Below, piece by piece: positions 6,705-60,545 of a stretch of DNA of 61,951 nt; position 1 is the stretch's first letter, and every line of letters begins with the position of its first letter. Below the pieces are notes generated by a model. That model saw only the letters and a list, made by a program, of their open reading frames with translations. It did no database searches and was not told the origin of the DNA. Location: assembly GCA_964453135.1 (NCBI GenBank), contig CAYVOL010000004.1, positions 1-61,951 of the forward strand. Reading direction: 5' to 3'. The DNA comes from an uncultured Candidatus Saccharibacteria bacterium. GTDB lineage: Bacteria > Patescibacteriota > Minisyncoccia > UBA6257 > UBA9933. The position numbers and the translations under genes are program-made.

Positions 6705-6789
6705 GTCATCCTGAGTCCCGCCCCGCCATGGCGGGGGGCGAAGGATCCCGTAGAGATTCTTCACCCCGCTAAGCGGGGCTCAGAATGAC
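6705..6789. repeat. Palindromic REP-like element (head-tail pair)
   Basis: GTCATCCTGAG-hairpin-CGAAGGATC ... GATTCTTC-hairpin-CTCAGAATGAC. Confidence 0.9.
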
Positions 6790-13210: not shown

Positions 13211-13370
13211 GTCATTTTTAATCCCCCGCCACGGCGGGGGCGGAGAAGAATCCACCATGTCATTCTGAATCCGCCAGCAGGCGGATGAAGAATCTTGCGA
13301 GATCCTTCGCTCCGCTCAAGATGACAATGCTGTGTCATTCTGAGCCCCGCCGTGGCGGGGTGAAGAATCT
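13211..13370. repeat. Cluster of four REP-like units
   Basis: GTCATT...GAAGAATC heads at 13211, 13259 and 13334; inverted GATCCTTCG...ATGAC tail at about 13301-13325. Confidence 0.9.
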
Positions 13371-17000: not shown

Positions 17001-17894
17001 TCCGGGGGAGGAACAAGTACGATTTCTCTGCCTGACGCTACTCTTATCACCCGCGTTGACGGCGGAGCGATTAACCTGGGAACTCTTTCGGCGGCCAGTG
17101 TTTCCGGCGGCGCTTTATCGGGTTTGGGAAGCGGAAATGTTGTTGACGGCGCTCTGCAATGGGGCATTACCAATTTAGGACTGCAATTTAGTTCGCCTAT
17201 AACTTTGGGAATATTTGTAGGCGACAGTTTTAACGGACAAACATTAAGTGTTATGCGTTCTGTTTCCGGTAGCGGCGATTGGACCAGCGACGGCATTGTG
17301 ACTCCGGCCACCTGTGTGGTATCCGGCGGAGTTTGTTCTTTTTCCGCCACCAAAGCGTCATATTACGCGGCGTATCATTCGGCTCCATCGTCCAGTGGTG
17401 GCGGCGGAGGCGGCGGCAGCCCTGTTGTTTCCGCCGGCTCTGGCGGCGGCGGTGGTGGCGGAGGCGGGGGAATATATTATTTCGGTCCGAGTGTTAACAC
17501 TTCCGCTTCTTCAAGCGCGAATAGCGGACAATCAGTTGCGTCTGTTTCGTCCAATGTTTCGCCGGTTTCGCCGAGCCAAACCATTACTGCCAATGAAATA
17601 ACAGAGACTTCGTCGTCTTTGTCTGCTCAGGGTGAAAACGCGCAAGCCGAAGCGGCTCAAACATCAGCTGGCGGAACTTCTACCAATGCTATAATACCTT
17701 TGGCAGGAACAAGTAATTTTTCAACAACTTCCGCTATTGCCTCAAATATCGCGCCGGAGCCTTTATTGGCAACTATTTTCGCGAACGTGATAACCGCCGG
17801 AACAGGCAACAACATCATCGCTTTTATTCTCATGACTCTTGTCTTGGTCATTGCCGCTTACTTTTTTGAACAACGTTTCAGAAAGAATAAATAA
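14037..17894 (+). CDS. Large membrane-anchored surface protein with tandem beta-sandwich modules and SdrD-B-like domains (start ATG 14037 or TTG 13947)
   Basis: N-terminal TM, five K.V...CT..N modules, GFKFEDVNGNG..D.GEPGL motif, Gly/Ser linker, C-terminal TM plus basic tail. Confidence 0.8.
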   Translation: MTVKNIKNRIISSSSVGLTLALFLIVLLPFALYFVRPHSAFASPQTLFFDNFDSGDFTKWTYVDNQNHAGNWDITNADRNGTGSSHKKAVISGDTGFSDDVLREATSTAGYQNIALSYWYHIEKSLEIDDHVYVEWYDGANWNQIADYTSSTTGIWTQTSSTLPSSAANNSNFQIRFKASFGKSPSSDKDEFQLDDVSLTGERLPTLTLVKTVINDNGGTATTTDFQGKIDGANVPWGVAQTLTAGSHTASEVANVSGYAASSWGTDCAASGNITLNPGDNKTCTITNNDQPGILIVKKTVINDNGGTKNAADFSFQINNGTTTAFEAGGQNNIAVNAGAYSVSEPATAGYGASYDNCSNVVIGNGETKTCTITNDDIAPSLTLRKTVVNGDSGTATADQWTLTADAGNAGKLTGAGPAVASGPTFKAGTYILSESGPAHYSPSAWTCEGGVQNGSQITIGAGETATCSITNTFVPPGKIVVVKETVGDDGGFDFTGDLGDFSLTTNKGNASKDFSDLNPGTYSVSEKETPAGWQKTSAVCDNGNDPSHIAIESSSTVVCTFVNTKEGRIIVKKVVSPSDDQTSFSFAASYNQSGFNLSGGQQNDSGYLSPGSYNVSENSQEGWIATSTCDNGNNVSNINLSAGATTTCTFVNTKLGKITGFKFEDVNGNGVFDSGEPGLANVALALGKETGPADERGVIPVEIVALSLTGADGNFEINNVEPGNYKLFEEKKDGWSVILPAATSSSFTFTYSSNLNGQQKPLATDSFFDVFVAPGQTASSGKSGGCQGETCPLVPLQFGNWQDPKIIVAKWNDLNVNHQKDEGEQPVSGFAVGLGKETEESADAIKTEMVQLQLTGGDGLANLQAPGPGHYVIFEESKDNWQTTSPAPVSKTLSIFYPTSWTDIKPHFNVDSFFDVFVEIDGGSITHSGSNKNVNQPTTTTTTGFAPLQFGNVRYENILGGKFVPMSGDSSSSTIVMALGQTTINLASGGGTSTISLPDATLITRVDGGAINLGTLSAASVSGGALSGLGSGNVVDGALQWGITNLGLQFSSPITLGIFVGDSFNGQTLSVMRSVSGSGDWTSDGIVTPATCVVSGGVCSFSATKASYYAAYHSAPSSSGGGGGGGSPVVSAGSGGGGGGGGGGIYYFGPSVNTSASSSANSGQSVASVSSNVSPVSPSQTITANEITETSSSLSAQGENAQAEAAQTSAGGTSTNAIIPLAGTSNFSTTSAIASNIAPEPLLATIFANVITAGTGNNIIAFILMTLVLVIAAYFFEQRFRKNK

Positions 17895-18027
17895 ATTTTA
17901 GCCAGAAAATTTTTTCTTAAAGAAGGGAGTTTCCAGTTATTTTTTGGACACCCCCTTCTTTTTTGTTATAATAAATTACAAAATTTCATAACGTTGTTTA
18001 CGTTTTTCATCGTTGATGTTTTTTATT

Positions 18028-18157
18028 GTCATCCTGAGTCCGCCAGTTGGCGGACGAAGGATCTCATAGATTCTTCTCCGCCAGTTGGCGGAGCCGGTTG
18101 GCGGATCAAAATGACAGAGCGAGGATATGGTAGATTCTTCGCTTAGCTCAGAATGAC
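18028..18157. repeat. REP-like cluster
   Basis: GTCATCCTGAG-CCGCCAGTTGGCGG-CGAAGGATC head and two ATGAC-ending tails. Confidence 0.9.
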
Positions 18158-18248
18158 AAAGGGGAAGGATATCGGGAACGCGGATGGTCAATATTCCGGA
18201 ATGTAAAAATGTAAACAGCGCTCGGATTTCTTACAATTAAACAGTATT

Positions 18249-19892
18249 ATGAATCGCGAAGATGATTTGAAAAAAATAATACAAGGGGGAGTAAGCGGCG
18301 AGGCGTCTTTGCTTGACGAATACAGCCACGACGCCAGTTTATTTGAAGTGCGTCCGGAAGTCGCGGCATTTCCCAAGGACGCTCAAGACATCAAGGCGCT
18401 GGTTGAATACGCTTCCAATGCCGCCTCCAAAGGGGAGCGTGTTTTTTTGACCCCGCGTTCCGGCGGCACGGATATGTCCGGCGGCGCTTTGGGCGAATCA
18501 GTTATTGTTGATATGGCGCGCTCTTTTAATCATATTCGGGAAATCGGAGAAAATTACGCCATAGTTGAGCCCGGAGTTTTTTATCGGGATTTTGAAAAAG
18601 AAACATTGAAACATAATCTGCTTTTGCCCTGTTATCCCGCTTCCCGCGAGCTTTGCACTCTTGGCGGAATGCTTTCCAACAATTCCGGCGGAGAAAAAAC
18701 GCTCCGTTACGGGAAAATGGAAAATTATGTTGAGGAAATCACTATGACGCTCCGTGACGGAAATTCATACGTGTTTCGCCCTTTAAATCTCGCCGCGCTG
18801 GAAGAAAAAAAGAAACTGAAAAATCTTGAAGGAGAAATTTACCGGCAAATGTTTTCGCTGATTGACGAAAATTACGAGATTATCCAATCTGCGAAGCCGC
18901 GCGTTTCCAAAAATTCTTCGGGATATTTTTTGTGGAACGTTTTTGATAAAAAGTCCGGCATATTTGACCTGACAAAACTTATTGTCGGCTCGCAGGGGAC
19001 ATTGGGCATTATCACCGAAGCGAAGTTGAAATTAATCGTTCCTAAAAAGCACTCGCGCCTGCTCATTATTTTCCTGCGCGATATGCATTCTTTGGCGGGA
19101 ATTGTCAACCATGTTTTGTCTTTCCAGCCGGAAAGTTTTGAATCTTACGACGACCATACTTTCGCGGTGGCGATGAAAGTTCTGCCCGACATCATCCGCC
19201 AGTTAAAGGGAAATTTGATAGTTTCCGCGTTCAGATTTTTGCCGGAGCTGTGGATGGCGATAAGCGGGGGAATGCCCAAAATGGTGCTTTTGGCGGAGTT
19301 TACCGGCGACAGCGCCGAAGAAGCGGAAAACGCCGCCCGCCGCGCCCAAGAAAGTTTGAAAGAATTTCATCTCGCGACCAAAGTGACCAAAACCGAGGGC
19401 GAAGCGAAAAAATACTGGACTATCCGGCGCGAAAGTTTTAATCTTTTGCGCCATCGCGTCAAGAAAATGCATACCGCGCCGTTTATTGACGACATCGTGG
19501 TGCGCCCCGAACAGCTTCCGGAATTTTTGCCCAAACTTTACGCTATCTTAAATCAATACGACATCATCTACACCATTGCCGGCCATGCCGGAGATGCTAA
19601 TTTCCACATCATTCCTTTGATGGATTTTTCCCGTCCCGATGCGAGGAAAATTATTTCCGAGATTGCCGAAAAAGTTTATGAACTGGTGTTTGTTTTCGGC
19701 GGTTCAATGTCCGGCGAACACAACGACGGCCTTATCAGAAGCCCTTATCTTAAAATGATGTACGGCGAAGAAGTTTACCGCTTATTTGAAAAAACAAAAC
19801 AGATTTTTGATCCCGAGGGGGTTTTTAATCCCGGCAAAAAAGTCGGCGCCAGTCTGGATTACGCTTTCTCGCGCATCCGCCATTGGCAGTAA
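18249..19892 (+). CDS. FAD-binding oxidoreductase (FAD-linked oxidase, GlcD/D-lactate dehydrogenase-like)
   Basis: PRSGGT..SG, TLGG...NNSGG, GSQGTLGIITE, GHAGD.NFH, GGS.SGEHNDG, FDP.G.FNPGK. Confidence 0.88.
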   Translation: MNREDDLKKIIQGGVSGEASLLDEYSHDASLFEVRPEVAAFPKDAQDIKALVEYASNAASKGERVFLTPRSGGTDMSGGALGESVIVDMARSFNHIREIGENYAIVEPGVFYRDFEKETLKHNLLLPCYPASRELCTLGGMLSNNSGGEKTLRYGKMENYVEEITMTLRDGNSYVFRPLNLAALEEKKKLKNLEGEIYRQMFSLIDENYEIIQSAKPRVSKNSSGYFLWNVFDKKSGIFDLTKLIVGSQGTLGIITEAKLKLIVPKKHSRLLIIFLRDMHSLAGIVNHVLSFQPESFESYDDHTFAVAMKVLPDIIRQLKGNLIVSAFRFLPELWMAISGGMPKMVLLAEFTGDSAEEAENAARRAQESLKEFHLATKVTKTEGEAKKYWTIRRESFNLLRHRVKKMHTAPFIDDIVVRPEQLPEFLPKLYAILNQYDIIYTIAGHAGDANFHIIPLMDFSRPDARKIISEIAEKVYELVFVFGGSMSGEHNDGLIRSPYLKMMYGEEVYRLFEKTKQIFDPEGVFNPGKKVGASLDYAFSRIRHWQ

Positions 19893-20016
19893 AAGGGCGC
19901 GATTCGTTTTTCCCGTATGTTTCTGCCGCGGATTTTTTGAACAAACCCCGACAGATTGTGATTTTTTTTGCTATAATTATTTGTAAGAAACCCGAGCGTT
20001 GTTTACATTGCGGAAC

Positions 20017-20174
20017 GAGATCCTTCGCCCCGCCATGGCGGGGACTCAGGATGACAAGGATGACAAAAATACTCAGGATGACACGGATGACAAAATACTT
20101 AGGATGACACATTTTGTTGTCATTCTGAACGTAGTGAAGAATCCGTCATGTCATTCTGAGTGAGGCGAAGAATC
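20017..20174. repeat. REP-like array upstream of the GIY-YIG gene
   Basis: One tail unit, stuttered GGATGAC copies, then two head units ending 10 nt before the ATG. Confidence 0.9.
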
Positions 20175-20500
20175 CCTAAAAACTATGTCAAAATTATACT
20201 ATGTTTATATAGCAACTAACCCCAACAATAATGTATTATATGCTGGCATCACCAATAATTTAACGAGAAGAATGCAGGAACACAAAAATAAAATAATTGA
20301 AGGATTTACCAAAAAATATAATGTAAATAAATTAGTTTTCTACGAGATTTTTAATAGTGTAAATGAAGCAATTACTGCCGAGAAAAAGATAAAAGGATGG
20401 TTAAGAAAAAAGAAAATAGCGTTAGTTAAAAGTAAAAATCCGCAATTCAAAGATTTAAGCGAAGAATTATGATGAGATCCTTCGTTTTACTCAGGATGAC
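20150..20500. mobile_element. Candidate autonomous element: GIY-YIG gene enclosed by 25-nt imperfect inverted repeats of the REP family
   Basis: Left GTCATTCTGAGTGAGGCGAAGAATC (20150-20174) and right GATCCTTCGTTTTACTCAGGATGAC (20476-20500) match at 20/25 positions as inverted repeats. Mobility is inferred. Confidence 0.55.
20185..20472 (+). CDS. Small stand-alone GIY-YIG endonuclease
   Basis: YYVYI...LYAGITNNL.RR..EH, FTKKYNV.KLV.YE, EA...EK.IKGW.R.KK. The gene is markedly AT-rich. Confidence 0.9.
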   Translation: MSKLYYVYIATNPNNNVLYAGITNNLTRRMQEHKNKIIEGFTKKYNVNKLVFYEIFNSVNEAITAEKKIKGWLRKKKIALVKSKNPQFKDLSEEL

Positions 20501-20700
20501 CAGTGGTATAAAGAGATTTTTTCCGCATAGCAATTTTGATCATTTTGTCATTCTGAATCCCCGCTAAGCGGGGCGGAGAAGAATCTTGTGAGATCCTTCG
20601 CCCCCCGCCGTGGCGGGGAGGGGCTCAGGATGACAAGGATGACAAAAATACTCAGGATGACACGTTTTTATTGTCATTCTGAGCCGGAGGCGAAGAATCT
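20474..20700. repeat. REP-like array downstream of the GIY-YIG gene
   Basis: Tail, head-tail pair, stuttered GGATGAC copies and a final head unit. Confidence 0.9.
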
Positions 20701-20709
20701 TATAAACAT

Positions 20710-23700
20710 ATGTTTAGAAATTATAAATTGAAAATTTTTACAAAATTCCTCAAAAACCTCGTCGTTTTTCTTTTGGCCTTCCTTTTTTTATTCTCCGATT
20801 TCATTTCTTTTCTGCCGCAAGATTGGCAAAATAGCCAGCTCGTGGAAAATTTCCAAGTTCCCGAGGCGCGCGCGGCAGTTACTTGCGGGTTTGGCTCCGA
20901 TAACGGCGCGGGCAGATGTATCGGATTTATTACTCAAACCGCTTCCACTACCTGGGTTGTGCCAAACGATTGGAATAACGCCTCCAATACCATTGAGCTC
21001 ATTGCCGGCGGCGGCGCGGGCGGCATTGGTTCAGGCACAGGCAATTCCGGAAACGGCGGCGGCGGCGGAGCTTACGCGGCAATAATAAATTTTTCCACCA
21101 CTACCGGCGCGAGCGTCAAAATTCAGGTTGGTGGTGGCGGCCAATCCACCAGTGCGAGCGGCACTCCCAGTTTTTTTAATTGGAATAACACTGGTTCAAC
21201 TTCCACTTGCAGCGCTTCTACAATGTCGGTTTGCGCTATGCCGGGTTTGGGAGGATTAAACGGCACAAACGGCCAAGGCGCCTTGGGCGGCTCTTCTTCA
21301 ACTTCAGTGGGAACGACAAAATACAGCGGCGGCAAAGGCGGAAACCAAAACAACACATCTTCTTCGGGCGGCGGAGGAGGAGGAGCGGGCGGAAAAAATG
21401 ATAACGGAAAATATACCGCAGTAACTACAAGCACTACCGGCGGCCAGGGAGACGGCACTTTTGGCGGCGCGGGCGGAGGGCCCGGCAATCCGGGCATTAC
21501 CGGCGCCACTGGCACGGAATGGGCCGCGACTGTTGGATCGGGCGGCGGAGGCGGCGGCGCTAACGCTTCGGGCGGCACCGGCGGATTAGGCGGCCAATAC
21601 GGCGGCGGTGGCGGCGGCGGTGGAAGAAGCAGCGGCGTGGCCGGCAAAGGCAGACAAGGCGTTATTGTCATCACTTATACGCCCAACGCTGTTTTGTCCG
21701 TTTCCACTTACGGCACGCAAACCGCCACTCTTGATTCCGGCGCCGGCGGCCAATACATCGGCGCGGCATTCACTTTGGCTTTAACCTCCAATAATAACCA
21801 AAATTCCACCACCACCTCTATCAAAGTTTCCGAAACAGGCACAGTAAACGCGGATACGGGATTGACTAACGTTAAATTTTATTATAATACCACAAGCACC
21901 AAAGGCGCAGGAGGCGAAACGCAATTTGGCAGCGGCGGCGCGTCGTTTGCAAACTCCAGCACCACCATTACCGGCACGATGACGCTTGCCACCACGACCA
22001 AATACTTGTTTATTGTTTTTGATATTACTTCCTCAACTCCCGGCGGGCAAAGCATAGATTTGCAGATCACCAATCCGTCAACGGATTTAATTTTGCAAAA
22101 CGCCACCACTTCTCAATCAAGCGCCGTGGCTTTGTCGGGTATCACCACCACCACGCCCAATTTAGTAAGTTTTTCCAATAACACCGAGCCGGCCTTGACC
22201 GACGGCGGAAGGAACAGCCAGGTTATTACTCTCAACGGCGCCGGCTTCGGCACTACCACCAGTTCCGTTACCCTGAAAATCGGTTCGGATTTGCTGACCG
22301 TGAGCTCCACCAACAACACCGTTGCCACTGCCACTATCCCTTCCAATTTTCCCGATACCAACAACGGCGGCGCAAACAAGCTCTTGATTATCGTGGGCGG
22401 ACAAGCCGACAACACTGGCTCCACTTTTTATGTTTACCCGCAGATTACTTCCGTAACCGTGCCGGGAGGCTTTCCCGCCAACACCGCCCGCGAATATGAT
22501 GCCGGCGATTCCGACGGCGTTATTACGATCAACGGGCATAACTTCGGTTCAGCCAGCACCACTAATCCTTTAACGATTTTGGGCTATAACACTTCGGGCT
22601 ATAGTTCGTGGGCTGCTGCTGCCATTGCCAACGCGCAAGTTCCCGCGACAATTCCTAATAATTCTTACACCGGCAATATTGTTTTAACGCGCAGTGATAA
22701 TCGTTCATATTCCACTGCGGCCAACAGTTTCCGCATTCTGCCGAGAATAACTTCCAATACCCCGAATAGCGGAGTTCACGGAGATGTTATCCAAATTTCC
22801 GGCAACCATTTTTGCCAAGGAACGTCATGTCCGTCCGCAGGCACTTCTACAGTCACGGATAATGTTAAATTTGATATCGCCACTGCCACTCTAAGCGATT
22901 TTGTTGATAATACCTCCGCCAATTGCAGCGGCTCCGGTTCAACCCGCGCTTGGACTGACTCGCAGATCTGCGTCAAGGTGCCTACTTCCACTATCGTGGG
23001 CGTGGCATCTTCGTCTGTTTTATCCAGCAGTTATCTTTCTAATTATAAATATTTTTATTCCAGTTCTTCCGCACCTAACGCGCCGACCGATTTAAGCCAA
23101 TATTTTTCCGATAATGTGACGCAAATATCCTCTGGCGGCTACAGCAGTTCCACCACTATTTACTTCCATGCCACTACTACTGCGTCAAACGCCATCAATA
23201 TGGCTTTGCAGGTTGAGGTTAGAGCAAGTAGCACGGCTTTTACGGGAACCCCCAACGTCCCGAACGGTCCCACTTGCGCCAGCTGCACTTCCACATCCAC
23301 GCAAACTTCCAGCAGTACTTTGACGGCTAATGGCATCGTGAGCGGCCAGGGCTATCATTGGCAGGCGAGAACGATTAATACTTATACTGGCGAGACTTCC
23401 TCTTGGGTTTTGTTTGGCTCCGCGGGCTCCACTGATTTTATTGTTGACACTATCGCGCCGACTATCACCAACGCCACTTCTTCCTCCATTACCAGCAACT
23501 CCGCTCTTATCACTTGGAATACCAACGAGCCCGCGGACAGCCAAGTGGAATACAGCACTTCCGCCGGAATTACCGGAAACTGCGCCACCACCTGCACTAC
23601 CTTGGATACTGCCACCACTACTTCCCATAGCGCCAGCTTAAACGGCCTGACTTCGGCCACCACTTATTATTTTGTCGCCATTTCCAAAGATTTAGCCGTT

Positions 23701-24174
23701 AATTCAGCCACCAGTTCTCCGGTAAAATCTTTTGCCACATTGGCTCCCAGCGGTTTTCAAGCCACTGGCACAATGGTTTCTCCCACTTTTGACACCGGCA
23801 CCGCCAACGGCGCGGGATTTAATTTTATTCTCGCCTCCGGCACTACTCCGGGAAGTTCCAAATTCCGGGTTCAGTTCGCGGCGTCCAATTGTTCCAACGG
23901 CGCCACCAACGCTCCCACTTGCAGCAGCGGTTCCTGGGGCTCTACCGGCTCCGATTATTTAGGGCCAGACTGCACTAACGGCTCTTACTATTTTGATTCC
24001 GGCTTCGGCGCTCTTGGCGGATCTCCCGCCATAACCGAAATAAAATGCCAGTCAACCTACAACAACAAAAGATATTTCCGGTATAAAGCGCTTTTATGTT
24101 CGTCAAGCGATTGCTCCACCCAAACATCAAATACTCCGGAGATAGACAAAATTACGATAAACTGGAGCCCGTAA
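20710..24174 (+). CDS. Large secreted Gly/Thr/Ser-rich surface protein with probable IPT/TIG-like and FN3-like domains
   Basis: N-terminal hydrophobic segment, poly-Gly region, G..FG beta modules, FN3-like W.T.EPADSQVEY...L.GLT..TTYYF, and Cys-containing C-terminal domain ending INWSP. Confidence 0.75.
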   Translation: MFRNYKLKIFTKFLKNLVVFLLAFLFLFSDFISFLPQDWQNSQLVENFQVPEARAAVTCGFGSDNGAGRCIGFITQTASTTWVVPNDWNNASNTIELIAGGGAGGIGSGTGNSGNGGGGGAYAAIINFSTTTGASVKIQVGGGGQSTSASGTPSFFNWNNTGSTSTCSASTMSVCAMPGLGGLNGTNGQGALGGSSSTSVGTTKYSGGKGGNQNNTSSSGGGGGGAGGKNDNGKYTAVTTSTTGGQGDGTFGGAGGGPGNPGITGATGTEWAATVGSGGGGGGANASGGTGGLGGQYGGGGGGGGRSSGVAGKGRQGVIVITYTPNAVLSVSTYGTQTATLDSGAGGQYIGAAFTLALTSNNNQNSTTTSIKVSETGTVNADTGLTNVKFYYNTTSTKGAGGETQFGSGGASFANSSTTITGTMTLATTTKYLFIVFDITSSTPGGQSIDLQITNPSTDLILQNATTSQSSAVALSGITTTTPNLVSFSNNTEPALTDGGRNSQVITLNGAGFGTTTSSVTLKIGSDLLTVSSTNNTVATATIPSNFPDTNNGGANKLLIIVGGQADNTGSTFYVYPQITSVTVPGGFPANTAREYDAGDSDGVITINGHNFGSASTTNPLTILGYNTSGYSSWAAAAIANAQVPATIPNNSYTGNIVLTRSDNRSYSTAANSFRILPRITSNTPNSGVHGDVIQISGNHFCQGTSCPSAGTSTVTDNVKFDIATATLSDFVDNTSANCSGSGSTRAWTDSQICVKVPTSTIVGVASSSVLSSSYLSNYKYFYSSSSAPNAPTDLSQYFSDNVTQISSGGYSSSTTIYFHATTTASNAINMALQVEVRASSTAFTGTPNVPNGPTCASCTSTSTQTSSSTLTANGIVSGQGYHWQARTINTYTGETSSWVLFGSAGSTDFIVDTIAPTITNATSSSITSNSALITWNTNEPADSQVEYSTSAGITGNCATTCTTLDTATTTSHSASLNGLTSATTYYFVAISKDLAVNSATSSPVKSFATLAPSGFQATGTMVSPTFDTGTANGAGFNFILASGTTPGSSKFRVQFAASNCSNGATNAPTCSSGSWGSTGSDYLGPDCTNGSYYFDSGFGALGGSPAITEIKCQSTYNNKRYFRYKALLCSSSDCSTQTSNTPEIDKITINWSP

Positions 24175-24225
24175 CGATAAATTTTAAATCCCAAATCCCC
24201 CATGTCTTTTGATTCCCAATCCTCT

Positions 24226-24491
24226 GTCATTCTGAATCCCGCCCCTTTTGTCATTCTGAATCCGCCAGCAGGCGGAGAAGAATCTATTGTGTCATTTTGA
24301 ACCGCCAGCCGGCGGAGAAGAATCCCGTATTTATGTGGGTTTGATCATGTGAGATCCTTCGTCCGCCAACTGGCGGACTCAGGATGACACGTTTCGCTGT
24401 CATCAAGATGACACGTTTCGCTGTCATTCTGAGCCGAAGGCGAAGAATCTTACGAGATCCCTCGTCCGTCAACTGACGGACTCAGGATGAC
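24226..24491. repeat. Large REP-like cluster followed by decayed AGGATGAC tails to about 24552
   Basis: Multiple GTCATT heads and GATCC...ATGAC tails, with CCGCC-hairpin inserts. Confidence 0.9.
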
Positions 24492-24576
24492 ATATTTTAT
24501 TAGACCAGGATGACCAAAAAGGATTAGGATGACTATTTTCACTCGGGATGATAATTAGGATTTTACATATCAACTT

Positions 24577-25146
24577 ATGAAACGTTTCGACCAACAACTT
24601 GTCGCGGATTATTTTGAAGGAGACGAAAAGTCTTTGGAAATTCTTTTCGGCCGGCATCTTAAAGCGATCTATGGTTTTGTCTATCGTCGGTATGCCGGCA
24701 ATTCGCAGGATGCGGAAGACATCACTCAGGAATCTTTTGTGAAAGCCTGGCGTAATCTTAAAAAATTTGATCAAAGTAAAAGTTTCAAGGCCTGGATTTT
24801 TGCCATTGCCAAAAACACGGCCCTTGATTTTTTGAAAAAGAAAAAAGCAGTTTTGTTTTCCGAATTTGAAAATCAGGAAGGAAAGAATGTTCTTATGGAA
24901 ACTCTTGCCGCGCCATTTTCGTCGCTTCAGGAAATTTTAGAAAAATCCGCAACGGTTGAGATGTCCAATTCGGCGATGGATTTACTTTCGCCCAGTCATC
25001 GCCTGGTTTTGTCTCTTTATTACGGCCAACAATTTAATTTTCGCGAGATAGCCGAGCGGTTAGGCGAGCCGCTTAATACTGTGAAGTCGCGCCATCGCCG
25101 CGCGCTCGCGTCTCTTAAAAAATCCTTCTCCGAACCGCCGCTGTAA
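24577..25146 (+). CDS. ECF-type RNA polymerase sigma factor
   Basis: Region 2 (AEDITQE.F.KAW.NL..F, F..W.F.IA.N...D) and region 4 (L...HR.VL.LYY......EIA..LG.P.NTVKSR..RA). Confidence 0.92.
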   Translation: MKRFDQQLVADYFEGDEKSLEILFGRHLKAIYGFVYRRYAGNSQDAEDITQESFVKAWRNLKKFDQSKSFKAWIFAIAKNTALDFLKKKKAVLFSEFENQEGKNVLMETLAAPFSSLQEILEKSATVEMSNSAMDLLSPSHRLVLSLYYGQQFNFREIAERLGEPLNTVKSRHRRALASLKKSFSEPPL

Positions 25147-29722: not shown

Positions 29723-29779
29723 AGTACGATGATTTGCAAGGATTTGTAAGAAATCCGAGCGTTGTTTATATTTCGGAAC

Positions 29780-29963
29780 GAGATCCTTCGTCCGCCAACT
29801 GGCGGACTCAGGATGACGGAAACGGTTAGAATGACGCCTTGTTGTCATTCTGAGCCCCGACCACTTGTCATTCTGAGCGAAGCGAAGAATCTACCATGTC
29901 TTCGTTATGTCATTCTGAATCCGCCAACTGGCGGACTCAGGAGGACAATTAAAACGGGATGAC
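29780..29963. repeat. REP-like cluster inside the exporter operon
   Basis: GATCCTTCG-CCGCCAACTGGCGG-ACTCAGGATGAC tail and three GTCATTCTGA heads. Confidence 0.9.
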
Positions 29964-47736: not shown

Positions 47737-50700
47737 ATGCCATCCGAAGAAAAAAAAGTTCCTGATATATTTCATAAGGCAAAGGCGGCCGATGCGGAGA
47801 AAAAAATTTTAAAGTTTTGGAAGGAAAACAGAATTTTTGAGAAAAGTTTGGAAAAACCGGCGCCAGCCGGAGAATTTGTATTTTACGACGGACCTCCTTT
47901 TGCCACCGGCACTCCTCATTACGGACATATTTTAGCCAGCGTTATTAAAGACGTCATACCGCGCTACCAGACAATGAAAGGAAAGCGGGTGCCGCGTCAA
48001 TGGGGCTGGGATTGCCATGGCCTTCCCATAGAAAACATTGCCGAAAAAGAACTGGGCATCAAGCGGAAAAAAGAAATTGAAGAGCTGGGCATCGGGAAAT
48101 TCAACGAATTCTGCCGTTCCAAAGTATTAAGCTATACCGAAGAATGGAAAAAGGTGATAGACCGCTTGGGTCGCTGGGCGGATATGGAAAGCGCCTACAA
48201 AACAATGGATCTCCATTATATGGAGACAGTTTGGGGGGTGTTTAAGCAGTTATGGGACAAAGGGCTTATTTACGAGGGCTATCGTTCTATGCACATCTGC
48301 CCGCGCTGTGAGACCACGCTTTCCCAGCAAGAAGTGGCAGAGGGATACAAAGACATAAAAGATATTTCCGCGACTGTTAAATTTGAATTAGAAGACGATG
48401 ATATTCCGCGCAATTCTGCGTCAATTCAGAGTAATTCCGCGAGGACGTATGTCTTAGCGTGGACGACCACACCCTGGACTTTAATCGGTAATGTGGCATT
48501 GGCGGTGAACGAAGATATTGATTATGTAAAAGTGAAATCTCTTCGTCATTCTGAATCCGCCAACTGGCGGATGAAGAATCTTACGGGATCCTTCGCCCCC
48601 GCCACGGCGGGGGCTCAGGATGACACGGGCGGATGCTATATCGTCGCGAAAAATCGCCTCAACGAAGTATTCAAAAACGAACATTATGAAATTGTCGCGG
48701 AATTTAAGGGCAAAGATTTGATCGGCAAAAAATATAAACCGCTTTTTGATTACTACTATGATGACAAAAATTTGGAAAATAAAGAGAACGGCTGGAAAAT
48801 TTACGGCGCGGATTTCGTGACAACCGACGAAGGAACCGGTATTGTGCACATCGCTCCGGCTTTCGGCGAAGATGATTTGAATTTAGGGAAAAAACACAAT
48901 CTGCCTTTTATCCAGCATGTCGGAATGGACGGAATAATAAAAAAAGAAGCGAAAGATTTTGCCGGTTATTCCGTTAAGCCTTTCGGCGACCATCAGAAAA
49001 CTGACATAGAAATTATTAAACATCTTTCCGCTCGCGGCTTGCTTTTCGCCAAAGAAAAATACGAGCATTCGTATCCGCATTGTTGGCGGTGTGAAACTCC
49101 GCTGATCAATTACGCCACCTCCTCCTGGTTTGTCAATGTCATTAAACTGAAAACAAAGGCGCTGGAATTGGCGAAAGAAATAAATTGGGTTCCCGAACAC
49201 ATTAAAGAAGGGCGTTTCGGTAACTGGCTGGAAGGCGCGCGTGACTGGTCTATTTCCCGGCAAAGATTTTGGGCGTCAGCTATGCCGATTTGGAAATGTA
49301 AAAATTGCGCGGAGATAAAAGTAATCGGCTCGGTTGACGAATTAAAAAAATATACACAAAAATCCAGCAACAAATATTTTATAATGCGGCACGGCGAGGC
49401 GGAAAGCAACGTTCAAGGCATTGCCAGCGCGTATTTAGACAAGTATCCTCTTACCCCAAAAGGCAGGATGCAGGTTGCGAAGGCGCTGGAGCAAATAAAA
49501 AAACAAAAAATAAATTTAATTTTTTCCTCCACTATTTTACGGGCCAAAGAAACCGCGGAAATAATCTCTGTTGCTTTGGGAAAAAATATAATTTTTGACA
49601 ATCGTTTGAACGAAGCGAACTTCGGATTTTTTAACGGAAAGCCGGTTCAGGAGTATCGCTCCCATTTTTCGTCTTTTAGAGAAAGATTCACTAAAACTCC
49701 CGAAGGCGGAGAAAATTTCTCGCAAGTTAAAAACAGAGCCGCTGATTTTTTGTATGAAATTGAGGCATCTTACGGCAATAAAAATATTTTAATAGTGAGC
49801 CACGAGGCGCCGATTTGGCTGATGTTCGCCGGCGCAGCCGGCTTTGATTTGGATCAGACATTGATTATTCAAGGCAAAGAAGAGGTGTTTGTGCAAAACG
49901 GCGAGGTGAAAGAATTAAATTTTGTTCCCTTGCCGCATAACGATAATTTTGTTCTTGACCTTCATCGGCCATACATAGACGAGATAAAATTAAAATGTTC
50001 TTGCGGTGGCGAGATGAAACGGATATCTGATGTCTTGGACACCTGGTTTGATTCCGGCTCTATGCCGTACACCAGGAAAGAATTCCCGGCGGAATTTATC
50101 GGCGAGGGTGTTGACCAGACGCGCGCGTGGTTTTATTATCTCCACATTATTGCAGCAGCTTTAAGAAATTCAGCGGCGTTTAAAAATGTGATTGTCAATG
50201 GAATTGTTTTAGCGGAAGACGGGAAGAAAATGAGCAAGCGCCTCAAGAATTATCCGGACCCGATGGAGATTATTGAAAAATATGGAGCGGATGCTTTGCG
50301 GATTTATCTTTTGTCTTCGCCGGTAGTGCGCGCGGAAAATCTTAATTTTTCCGAAAAAGGAGTTGACGAAGCGCATAAGAAAGTAGTTTTGCGGCTGAAA
50401 AACGTGCTGGCTTTTTACAATCTATACGCCGATAAAAATTTTCAAGATACAAGTTTCAAGATTCAAGGTTTGAACATTTTAGACGAGTGGATTTTGGCGC
50501 GGCTGAATGAACTGATAAAAGAAATTTCCGAAGCGCTGGATAAATACGAATTAGACAAAGCAACTCGTCCCATCGCTGATTTTGTTGATGACTTATCCAC
50601 TTGGTATGTTAGAAGATCAAGAGAAAGGTTTAAAAATGACGATAAAGACAAAGAAAAAGCGATTGCTGTATTGCGTTTTGTTTTAACGGAGATTTCCAAA

Positions 50701-51327
50701 ACCATCGCGCCGTTTATGCCGTTTACAGCGGAAGAAATTTATCAAGTTGTCGGGTATCAAGTTTCAGGCGTCAGGAATCTAGAATCGGTTCATTTAGAAA
50801 GTTGGCCCAAAGCTGATGAGAAAAATATTAACAAGAGATTGTTGGAAGATATGGCGATGACGAGAAAAATTTGTTCGCTTGGACTGGAAGCGCGGCAGAA
50901 AGCGGGAATAAAAGTGCGCCAGCCGCTCGCGTCGCTTAAAGTTAAAGTTGGGGAGCAAGTTAAAGTTATTGACAAAACGTTTTTAGATTTGATGGAAGAC
51001 GAATTAAATATAAAAGAAATTATTTTTGACGATAGAATTTCCGATGAAATTGAATTAGATACGAATATCACGCCCGAGTTAAAAGTCGAAGGCCGATTGC
51101 GGGAATTGACGCGCGCCATTCAGGATTTACGCAAGAAATCCGGCCTGACGCACCAGGATAAGATAAAACTTGTTATTGAAAGCGACAGCGCAGGCGAAAA
51201 ACTGATAGAAATGTTCAGAGATGAAATCAAAGAAAGCGTGAACGCGGACGCAATAAAATTATCCCAAAATAACGGAGAAGCGGTAGATATTGATGAATTA
51301 AAATTCAAAATAGAAATTGAAAAATGA
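47737..51327 (+). CDS. ileS: Isoleucine-tRNA ligase (type 2) with an inserted histidine-phosphatase domain and repeat-derived peptides
   Basis: DGPPFATG.PHYGH, GWDCHGLP, WTTTPWTL, DWSISRQR.W, GVDQTRAWF, KMSKR, EG..REL.R.IQ..RK. Confidence 0.96.
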   Translation: MPSEEKKVPDIFHKAKAADAEKKILKFWKENRIFEKSLEKPAPAGEFVFYDGPPFATGTPHYGHILASVIKDVIPRYQTMKGKRVPRQWGWDCHGLPIENIAEKELGIKRKKEIEELGIGKFNEFCRSKVLSYTEEWKKVIDRLGRWADMESAYKTMDLHYMETVWGVFKQLWDKGLIYEGYRSMHICPRCETTLSQQEVAEGYKDIKDISATVKFELEDDDIPRNSASIQSNSARTYVLAWTTTPWTLIGNVALAVNEDIDYVKVKSLRHSESANWRMKNLTGSFAPATAGAQDDTGGCYIVAKNRLNEVFKNEHYEIVAEFKGKDLIGKKYKPLFDYYYDDKNLENKENGWKIYGADFVTTDEGTGIVHIAPAFGEDDLNLGKKHNLPFIQHVGMDGIIKKEAKDFAGYSVKPFGDHQKTDIEIIKHLSARGLLFAKEKYEHSYPHCWRCETPLINYATSSWFVNVIKLKTKALELAKEINWVPEHIKEGRFGNWLEGARDWSISRQRFWASAMPIWKCKNCAEIKVIGSVDELKKYTQKSSNKYFIMRHGEAESNVQGIASAYLDKYPLTPKGRMQVAKALEQIKKQKINLIFSSTILRAKETAEIISVALGKNIIFDNRLNEANFGFFNGKPVQEYRSHFSSFRERFTKTPEGGENFSQVKNRAADFLYEIEASYGNKNILIVSHEAPIWLMFAGAAGFDLDQTLIIQGKEEVFVQNGEVKELNFVPLPHNDNFVLDLHRPYIDEIKLKCSCGGEMKRISDVLDTWFDSGSMPYTRKEFPAEFIGEGVDQTRAWFYYLHIIAAALRNSAAFKNVIVNGIVLAEDGKKMSKRLKNYPDPMEIIEKYGADALRIYLLSSPVVRAENLNFSEKGVDEAHKKVVLRLKNVLAFYNLYADKNFQDTSFKIQGLNILDEWILARLNELIKEISEALDKYELDKATRPIADFVDDLSTWYVRRSRERFKNDDKDKEKAIAVLRFVLTEISKTIAPFMPFTAEEIYQVVGYQVSGVRNLESVHLESWPKADEKNINKRLLEDMAMTRKICSLGLEARQKAGIKVRQPLASLKVKVGEQVKVIDKTFLDLMEDELNIKEIIFDDRISDEIELDTNITPELKVEGRLRELTRAIQDLRKKSGLTHQDKIKLVIESDSAGEKLIEMFRDEIKESVNADAIKLSQNNGEAVDIDELKFKIEIEK
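48545..48624. repeat. REP-like head-tail pair inserted in-frame in ileS
   Basis: GTCATTCTGAATCCGCCAACTGGCGGATGAAGAATC-ttacgg-GATCCTTCGCCCCCGCCACGGCGGGGGCTCAGGATGAC. Confidence 0.92.
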
Positions 51328-60501: not shown

Positions 60502-60518
60502 CAATGCTGGTTATTGTT

Positions 60519-60545
60519 GTCATTCCCGCAAAGGCGGGAATCCAG
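60519..60545. repeat. Single palindromic REP unit of a related GTCATTCCCGC-type family
   Basis: GTCATTCCCGCAAAGGCGGGAATCCAG. Confidence 0.75.

Follow-up and report, generated by a model that had tools for sequence, protein, structure and literature searches.

Closest described systems and identity of the locus

Members of the Ssn family are bare GIY-YIG proteins of ~94 amino acids (aa) assigned to CDD cd10448 (GIY-YIG_unchar_3), and their genes lie between hairpin repeats of which further copies are scattered over the genome, namely NTS (CGTCATTCCCGCGMAVGCGGGAATCYRG) in Neisseria and, more generally, the Ssn-related motifs (SRMs) (PMC11893778, Chenal et al., Nat Commun 2025). Four Ssn homologues bind the motif only as single-stranded DNA (ssDNA) and cut only the strand that carries it, a few nucleotides upstream of the motif; double-stranded DNA (dsDNA) and RNA are not cut by the same homologues, and SsnA shows no RNA binding (PMC11893778). 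In NTS, the C that follows the palindrome and the 3 nt that precede it are critical, structure alone being insufficient for motif recognition, and the only in vivo role shown for the family is a 5-fold effect on Neisseria transformation with NTS-bearing DNA (PMC11893778). In the 61,951-nt stretch of contig CAYVOL010000004.1 analysed here (the window, ~62 kb), the open reading frame (ORF) at 20185–20472 on the forward strand very probably encodes an Ssn-family nuclease of the cd10448 type, and the repeats that surround it and are dispersed through the window are probably its cognate SRMs. Judged from the sequence, the probability of this assignment is about 0.88, and the gene is hereafter called ssn.

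The pairing of gene and repeats is that of the Ssn/SRM system published in 2025 (PMC11893778). The sequence-only reading of this DNA had presented it as a candidate new mobile system; it was a correct re-discovery and not a new find, the published Discussion having already likened NTS-ssnA-NTS to an insertion sequence and drawn the comparison with RAYT and REP (PMC11893778). Particular to the present locus are the host lineage, a GA-loop hairpin that is missed by the published search string, a heterodimeric arrangement of repeat units with ssn in the spacer, and a repeat doublet lying in frame in the gene for isoleucyl-tRNA synthetase (IleRS). Unlike the Neisseria hosts, the organism has a Patescibacteria-type, ultra-small genome, recovered from a mine-drainage metagenome.

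The window repeats also belong to the superfamily of CGTC-tagged repetitive extragenic palindromic (REP) sequences, which includes the Rickettsia palindromic elements and was concluded to have no enzyme of its own (PMC3733652; Di Nocera, De Gregorio and Rocco 2013). Both the window repeats and these REPs are short palindromes, one end of which bears an unpaired (C/T)GTC tag. Both frequently form inverted dimers and lie mostly between genes, some copies being inserted in frame into housekeeping genes. The window repeats differ from the CGTC-tagged REPs as described in 2013 in having a GIY-YIG nuclease as the dedicated partner and in carrying TGTC, not CGTC, as the tag. A similar organization is seen in REPtrons (RAYT with GTAG REPs; IS200/IS605), in which a small nuclease gene is bracketed by inverted hairpins that are recognised as ssDNA, as would be expected by analogy for the window protein, and in which many gene-less copies (REPs and bacterial interspersed mosaic elements) are found elsewhere. 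In contrast to REPtrons, the enzyme at the present locus is of the GIY-YIG type, unrelated in fold and chemistry to the HUH/Y1 enzymes (no Y1 transposase match was obtained for the enclosed gene in the Pfam scan), the tag is GTC and not GTAG, and the hairpins lie on opposite strands, so that the two cuts would have to fall on different strands.

The ssn gene and its product

The ssn ORF encodes 95 aa (stop codon at 20470–20472) and is framed by two 25-nt repeat units (Ssn-type hairpins are designated here by their 5-nt stem sequence). The head unit GTCATTCTGAGTGAGGCGAAGAATC (20150–20174, +; ATTCT class) is separated by 10 nt from the ssn ATG, and the tail unit GTCATCCTGAGTAAAACGAAGGATC (20476–20500, −; ATCCT class), which is inverted, begins 3 nt past the stop codon. 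The two units are identical at 20/25 positions, and the framing described in the sequence-only reading was confirmed by these coordinates. Another short unit of the ATTCT class, GTCATTCTGAACGTAGTGAAGAATC, is located at 20119–20143 (+) and, like the tail unit, was detected by the full-unit pattern given below. The GC content of ssn is 26.4% compared with 44.3% for the window and is below that of every 288-nt window sampled each 50 nt across the 62 kb; the earlier remark that the gene is much more AT-rich than its neighbours was therefore accurate. No second copy of ssn was found in the window by tblastn.

The product matches the Pfam GIY-YIG domain (PF01541) with an E-value of 5.4e-19 and a score of 68.7 bits over residues 5–77 of 95. 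In a tblastn search of a 7.3-Gb plasmid collection with the window protein, a 94-aa ORF of N. gonorrhoeae was detected (E = 2e-12, 95% cover). This ORF (L111:616–900) has Y6, Y17, and E64 as in SsnA and is flanked by canonical NTS units, and it was used in all comparisons as the orthologue standing in for SsnA of N. meningitidis. The source record (NZ_CP119140.1) is listed in PLSDB as a non-mobilizable plasmid but is a chromosome of N. gonorrhoeae of 2.17 Mb. Pairwise alignment of the window protein with the N. gonorrhoeae orthologue showed 41% identity over 85 residues without gaps (E = 3e-26), and Y8, Y19, and E66 of the window protein aligned with Y6, Y17, and E64. These three residues, together with R29, H33, and N85, are invariant in 16 homologues. 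The window protein and SsnA of the Ssn/NTS system (PMC11893778) are thus alike as single-domain GIY-YIG proteins of 94–95 aa with aligned catalytic Tyr, Tyr, and Glu residues.

Membership of the family was judged by a single GIY-YIG domain in a protein of <150 aa, by the published BLAST limits of homology to SsnA of N. meningitidis (E <1e-10 with at least 75% cover), and by oriented GTC-tag hairpins within 500 bp on both sides of the gene. The window protein, at 95 aa, lies within the size limit and, against the N. gonorrhoeae orthologue, within the homology limits, and the units at 20119–20143 and 20150–20174 (forward) and at 20476–20500 (reverse) provide the hairpins. The AlphaFold model of the protein (mean predicted local distance difference test score, 94.3) consists of one compact GIY-YIG domain. 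Its nearest solved folds are 1ZG2 (UPF0213 BH0048), Slx1, and the N-terminal domain of UvrC; no Ssn structure was found in PDB, and NCBIfam contains no model specific to Ssn. With Slx1 and the UPF0213/YhbQ-type proteins (PDB 1ZG2, 4XLG, and 7CQ4), the Foldseek probability is 1.0 and the TM-score 0.59–0.64, but sequence identity is only 20–28%. Slx1 is a structure-specific nuclease acting on branched and flapped DNA, which needs Slx4 and carries a RING/PHD domain, and the UPF0213 proteins form a separate CDD family with, to our knowledge, no repeat partner. The present analysis establishes the homology, the conserved catalytic Tyr, Tyr, and Glu, and the GIY-YIG fold, as well as a physical association of gene and motif that extends over ~20 phyla (see below); cleavage of ssDNA by the window protein and its role in the cell are inferred.

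Repeat units in the window

In the window, 17 matches to the full-unit pattern GTCATYCTGA-N4-20-GAAGRATC were found, compared with none in 100 dinucleotide-preserving shuffles; likewise, there are 40 matches to the 10-mer head when up to 1 mismatch is allowed, compared with 4.3 expected. All 17 units carry the (T)GTC tag. Each unit is built of the GTC tag, an outer stem of 5 bp followed by a conserved GA..GA internal loop, and a trailing C, and an inner GC-rich hairpin is present in about half of the units. This construction (outer stem, GA..GA loop, and frequent inner hairpin) distinguishes the window hairpins from the published SRM. The window unit GTCATTCTGAG..CGAAGAATC and NTS CGTCATTCCCGCG..GCGGGAATC nevertheless have the GTC tag, the palindrome, and the trailing C in common and share their ends, with a GTCATTC head and a GAATC end, which take in the positions critical in NTS. 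Two stem classes, ATTCT and ATCCT, are strand-biased in the window and pair as heterodimers, and ssn sits in the spacer of such a dimer; the heterodimers and the position of ssn are also unlike those of published Ssn systems, in a subfamily known here from sequence.

The repeats form eight clusters, at ~6.7, 13.3, 18.1, 20.0–20.7, 24.3, 29.8, and 48.6 kb and, as a different-looking unit, at 60.5 kb. Six head-tail doublets without a gene were identified, with spacers of 5–7 nt, as had been noticed from the sequence alone (there with a somewhat wider spacer range, 5–10 nt). Four are located at 13294/13301 (spacer TTGCGA), 20585/20592 (TTGTGA), 24449/24456 (TTACGA), and 48580/48587 (TTACGG), and two, in inverse orientation, at 6747/6755 and 18063/18069. 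The ssn gene therefore occupies the place of a doublet spacer. As with NTS, which cluster around membrane-protein genes in Neisseria (PMC11893778), the GTC-tagged hairpins of the 62-kb window lie on both sides of ssn, are dispersed and mostly intergenic, and are often clustered by surface-protein genes: the densest arrays bracket the gene at 20710–24174, which encodes a 1154-aa surface-type protein with IPT/TIG and FN3-like domains and an N-terminal hydrophobic segment.

Two results weigh against the assignment of the repeats as SRMs. The 25-nt units flanking ssn are weak hairpins in a DNA energy model (−1.2 kcal/mol for the head unit alone and −1.9 kcal/mol), no better than shuffles, while long units fold at −9.6 and −10.6 kcal/mol. 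Since the short flanking units barely fold, their recognition would have to rest largely on sequence and perhaps on non-canonical G-A pairs, in keeping with the published insufficiency of structure alone (PMC11893778). Furthermore, in a scan of the window, the units flanking ssn were not matched by the published degenerate SRM string, HGTCWYN(0-2)YYVSBRHN(0-5)WNVSBRGN(0-2)RNCYNB, which matched only the unit at 60518–60545 and one probable chance site. The GA-loop units are missed by this string because their 5-bp outer stem is followed by the GA..GA internal loop; the miss reflects how the string was drawn up and does not speak against the biology of the family. Surveys using the published pattern therefore undercount the family.

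The unit at 60518–60545 (+), TGTCATTCCCGCAAAGGCGGGAATCCAG, corresponds to the Neisseria NTS almost letter for letter and differs in class from the 17 GA-loop units; it is the sole repeat unit of the window that fits the published SRM string and folds as DNA at −9.1 kcal/mol (z = −4.9). The genome may hold two motif classes, perhaps with two ssn paralogues.

Linkage of ssn and hairpins in other genomes

A survey was made of 80 loci (L001–L080; 437 kb) from ~20 phyla, encoding homologues 54–71% identical to the window protein. Over the 437 kb, 324 strict GA-loop units were counted, compared with 0–2 in simulated sequence. With a general unit defined as GTC, a 5-nt arm, its complement, and C, a unit was present within 150 nt upstream of ssn at 62/79 loci, downstream at 74/79, and on both sides at 57/78; these figures agree with the published 71% and 42%, being slightly above them. 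The density of units was 8.96 per kb near ssn and 0.60 per kb more than 500 nt away from it, a 15-fold difference. Enrichment of the repeats at the flanks of homologues, which the sequence-only reading had named as a check on its proposal, was therefore found, and the idea of a GIY-YIG nuclease as the dedicated partner of REP-like hairpins, in parallel to RAYT and REP, is borne out by this 15-fold enrichment over ~20 phyla.

The nearest upstream unit is mostly forward (44/62 loci), the nearest downstream unit is reversed in 42/75, and at 14 loci a reversed unit begins within 6 nt after the stop codon. Stem sequences vary among loci with pairing kept (ATTCT, ATCCT, ATTGC, ATGCT, ACCCT, ACTCT, ATTTC, and ATTCC), and the stem classes cluster on the protein tree, requiring 27 changes compared with a shuffled mean of 33.5 (0/300 shuffles were as low). 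This clustering fits co-evolving pairs of enzyme and motif. The commonest flank pair, found at 8 loci, is an ATTCT unit upstream of ssn and an inverted ATCCT unit downstream, and this cassette occurs in bins of Gammaproteobacteria, Patescibacteria, Clostridia, Cyanobacteriota, and Bacteroidota (at least five phyla). At all 78 loci with enough flank, the GC content of ssn is below that of the flanks (mean, 34% compared with 45.6%), and it tracks host composition (r = 0.84). Phyla are mixed on the protein tree, with 34 phylum-label changes against a minimum of 20, as read from a tree of 95 columns with 4 well-supported branches and from phylum labels of metagenome bins in which mis-binning is possible. 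Near-identical proteins were found in bins assigned to Saccharibacteria, Anaerolineae, and Zixibacteria. Nostoc species, on the other hand, keep ssn in an orthologous position, three loci (L063, L072, and L075) having common upstream sequence.

Predicted action of Ssn and evidence concerning mobility

By analogy with the Neisseria and Wolbachia homologues, Ssn would most likely act on DNA made single-stranded by replication, repair, or DNA uptake, binding the GTC-tagged units there and nicking the tag strand a few nucleotides 5′ of GTC, and would ignore dsDNA, RNA, and the complementary strand. Because the motifs on either side of ssn are outward-facing and on opposite strands, the enzyme would be expected to cut just outside each end of the cassette, once per strand, and single-strand excision as in IS200/IS605 would therefore not be possible. 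Such opposite-strand cuts could seed repair or copy synthesis. In addition, hydrolytic GIY-YIG enzymes act without a covalent tyrosine intermediate and therefore, unlike RAYT, have no built-in rejoining step; we know of no strand-transfer or rejoining activity of such nucleases. In the cell, Ssn might serve to restrict incoming ssDNA, as in Neisseria transformation, to propagate the repeats, or both.

A difference in ssn content between related lineages was found in Sungbacteria. In one lineage, a homologue 76% identical to the window protein (P0006) and three hairpin units fill the spacer between atpA and atpG, at 10/10 places (L096–L105), and neither ssn nor such a hairpin was found within 6.5 kb in relatives with atpA 88, 82, and 77% identical (L106–L110), one of which has a plain atpA-atpG spacer of ~110 nt. 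The presence of the cassette in one lineage and its absence from relatives suggest that it was gained or lost as a unit, between lineages too distant to define its junctions. In the ATP synthase operon of this lineage (L096, 1–6288), three extra small genes are present: one for a PDDEXK_3 protein separates atpH from atpA, ssn occupies the atpA-atpG spacer, and an ORF of 106 aa separates atpG from atpD. Its atpA has a 32-residue insertion that is missing in relatives at 88% identity, and other, unrelated small ORFs occur in the atpA-atpG spacer of relatives.

Exact Ssn protein variants were each found in a single gene neighbourhood (5/5 variants; 8–24 contigs read per variant, with 6–10 places from different samples shown), and these variants thus give no indication that the gene has transposed recently. 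Neither a target-site duplication nor defined ends were recognised beside the units. A 45-nt direct repeat (20041–20085 and 20620–20664; 98% identical; families D1 and D2) brackets ssn and the inner units, and the direct repeat of 41–45 nt belongs to a composite repeat.

Empty sites at the window locus were sought in Logan contigs of three runs from the source sample. One contig of run X2 joins 20044 to 20624 without ssn through a 41-nt perfect direct repeat. With ssn at a depth of 4.5 and the flanks at 5.0, that is, at equal depth, this joint was treated as an assembly path through the repeat and not as an empty allele; a deletion by recombination between the 45-nt repeats would also produce it. 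Another joint connects 20143 with 20590 through TTAGC; as one of its sides measures only 26 nt, it most likely derives from another doublet. Among five relatives (49–78% identity) found in a metagenome scan with the neighbouring FAD-linked oxidase, none is syntenic and none has hairpins, and no orthologous empty site was found there. The search for empty sites suggested in the sequence-only reading thus gave Sungbacteria relatives without the atpA-atpG cassette and no trustworthy empty allele at the window locus.

The last codons of ssn, AGC GAA GAA TTA TGA TGA (20452–20475), resemble the 3′ half of a unit followed by a doublet spacer, as is seen when the 3′ end of the gene, AGCGAAGAATTATGATGA|GATCC and GAAGAATCTTGTGA|GATCC, is compared with the reverse complement of 18056–18076, GAAGAATCTATGA|GATCC. 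The resemblance is suggestive, and the gene-less doublets could be deletion derivatives of the cassette. Counter to this idea, the C-terminal SEEL/SEEW is conserved whatever the hairpin class, and the doublet spacers vary in other genomes.

Possible roles of the gene and its repeats

Given an Ssn identity for the locus, what the system does may be explained in more than one way. In Neisseria, Ssn acts on transformation, and it is possible, at somewhat less than even odds, that the window system is likewise a domesticated control of ssDNA restriction or recombination, in which hairpins mark chromosomal regions, the nuclease cuts nearby ssDNA and shapes its integration, and neither gene nor repeats move any longer. 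The 5-fold effect on transformation, as the sole in vivo function shown for the family (PMC11893778), argues for such a role, as do the stable single loci of ssn variants, the orthologous positions kept among Nostoc, and the arrays around the 1154-aa surface-type gene, which echo the NTS clusters of Neisseria. However, this explanation accounts neither for the origin of hundreds of near-identical hairpins nor for the placement of ssn exactly inside a doublet, natural transformation of the host organism would have to be assumed, and in-frame copies in essential genes such as that for IleRS resemble the insertions left by a spreading element rather than signals set in place. In the sequence-only reading, the cassette would be an autonomous mobile element with the doublets as derivatives resembling miniature inverted-repeat transposable elements, nicks outside the outward-facing hairpins in ssDNA allowing host replication or repair to copy the cassette or the hairpins to new sites. 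This possibility, raised also in the published Discussion (PMC11893778), is compatible with Ssn identity and adds a claim on function; we consider it rather unlikely. It is consistent with the position of ssn in place of a 5–7-nt spacer, the ATTCT-ssn-ATCCT cassette in at least five phyla as the commonest flank pair (8 loci), the Sungbacteria cassette missing in relatives, the GC content of ssn below that of the flanks at 78/78 loci, and the mixing of phyla on the protein tree. On the other side stand the single neighbourhood of each of the five exact variants, the one ssn copy in the window, the lack of a recognised target-site duplication or defined ends, and the source-sample contigs without a trustworthy empty allele; moreover, no rejoining chemistry is known to us for a hydrolytic GIY-YIG enzyme, opposite-strand cuts cannot excise a single-stranded circle as TnpA of IS200/IS605 does, and the cross-phylum signal rests partly on metagenome bins and a 95-column tree with 4 well-supported branches. 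The earlier proposal that the nuclease drives repeat spread or homing accordingly remains unproven, the apparent gain or loss of the cassette between related lineages speaking for it and the single context of each of the 5/5 variants against recent transposition.

Two other explanations would make the association of nuclease and repeats incidental. The repeats might be mainly RNA elements (terminators, mRNA stabilisers, or small RNAs), with ssn adjacent only since repeats fill most intergenic spacers. The units do lie between mostly co-directional genes, form strong hairpins when paired, and show the strand bias of the ATTCT and ATCCT classes, and many CGTC-tagged REPs have been argued to be transcribed (Di Nocera et al. 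2013, PMC3733652). However, hairpins are 15-fold enriched beside ssn relative to the rest of the loci in ~20 phyla, which an overall abundance of repeats between genes cannot explain; stem classes go with clades of the protein; and SsnA does not bind RNA (PMC11893778). No Rfam family reached threshold in a scan of 17800–24700 (the best match was sucA at 27.5 bits, against a gathering score of 40, E = 0.063), and no terminator-like T-tracts were found, so that this explanation appears very unlikely. The sub-threshold sucA RNA motif, on the doublet at 18027–18111 (−), is most likely a chance resemblance of hairpins, and a hammerhead-like reading of GUC...CUGA...GAA was rejected, the core being without CUGANGA and GAAA spacing and the published partner recognising DNA and not RNA. 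A classical homing endonuclease of the I-TevI type, cutting dsDNA at an empty allele with the repeats incidental, is suggested by weak matches of the window protein to T5orf172 (E = 9e-5) and TIGR01453 (18.6 bits) and by the AT-rich, selfish-looking gene. The TIGR01453 score is, however, far under the cut-off of 56 bits. Homing enzymes need a linker and DNA-binding domains, and the window protein is a bare 95-aa catalytic domain without either. In addition, ssn lies in neither an intron nor an intein, no relative of the protein was found in phage records, and SsnA is the nearest characterised relative; homing of this kind is thus extremely improbable.

The assignment as an Ssn nuclease with cognate SRMs stands apart from the question of movement. 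It is doubtful, and we would propose it only as a conjecture, that the cassette of ssn and its two hairpins represents a new mechanistic class of autonomous mobile element, active now or until recently, whose lone protein would be a 95-aa hydrolytic GIY-YIG nickase of single strands that cuts just beyond the outward-facing hairpins on opposite strands, with host replication or repair copying the cassette and the doublets. If this were true, it would explain the origin of the CGTC/TGTC-tagged REP superfamily, and the GA-loop class would represent a lineage that has travelled widely and escapes current search strings. With its exact placement of ssn in a doublet spacer, a cassette shared across phyla, and an in-frame copy in an essential gene, the locus is a clean test object for the question of whether Ssn mobilises CGTC-tagged repeats.

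Other features of the locus and further repeat clusters

Upstream of the repeat array and ssn, a promoter-like site (CCGACA, 18 nt, TG-TATAAT) is present at 19948–19977 (+), which is a consensus match only (10/12 positions, with an extended −10 TG) and could drive transcription through the array into ssn. It is followed by one of three copies of a ~29-nt non-palindromic motif, GTAAGAAAYCCGAGCGTTGTTTAYATT, located at 18208–18236 (−), 19981–20009 (+), and 29744–29772 (+); both plus-strand copies have an inverted ATCCT unit within ~10 nt downstream. A long hairpin unit of the ATCCT class, GTCATCCTGAGTCCCCGCCATGGCGGGGCGAAGGATC, is located at 20019–20055 (−) and folds at −9.6 kcal/mol (z = −2.3), and a half-head array of GTCATCC stutters, part of the 45-nt direct repeat, is located at 20056–20111 (−). 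Beyond the tail unit lies the gene-less doublet at 20547–20634, composed of a long ATTCT unit (20547–20585, +), the spacer TTGTGA, and a long ATCCT unit (20592–20634, −); the stretch 20544–20640, which contains it, forms a single 97-nt DNA hairpin (−28.3 kcal/mol, z = −4.6). The second stutter copy (20635–20664, −; family D2) forms the end of the direct repeat, and an ATTCT unit at 20673–20699 (+) is located 10 nt ahead of the start of the large surface-protein gene (20710).

Half-head arrays (GTCATCC and variants every 9–27 nt) are found at 20056–20111, 20635–20664, and 24389–24540, 5′ of minus-strand units. They are located where the Ssn cut would be expected and could be footprints of slippage or repair.

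Further clusters detected with the unit pattern comprise a gene-less doublet in inverse orientation at 6705–6789, a cluster including a doublet at 13245–13369, a cluster with an inverse-orientation doublet at 18028–18171, and, by unit pattern and head matches, a cluster at 29782–29946. A large cluster of units and half-heads (24226–24533) lies directly downstream of the surface-protein gene. In the IleRS gene (47737–51327), the doublet at 48545–48624 is in frame (...VKSLRHSESANWRMKNLTGSFAPATAGAQDDTGGCY...), and a histidine-phosphatase domain (PF00300, His_Phos_1; ~49378–49861, residues 548–708) splits the halves of the catalytic domain of the same protein.

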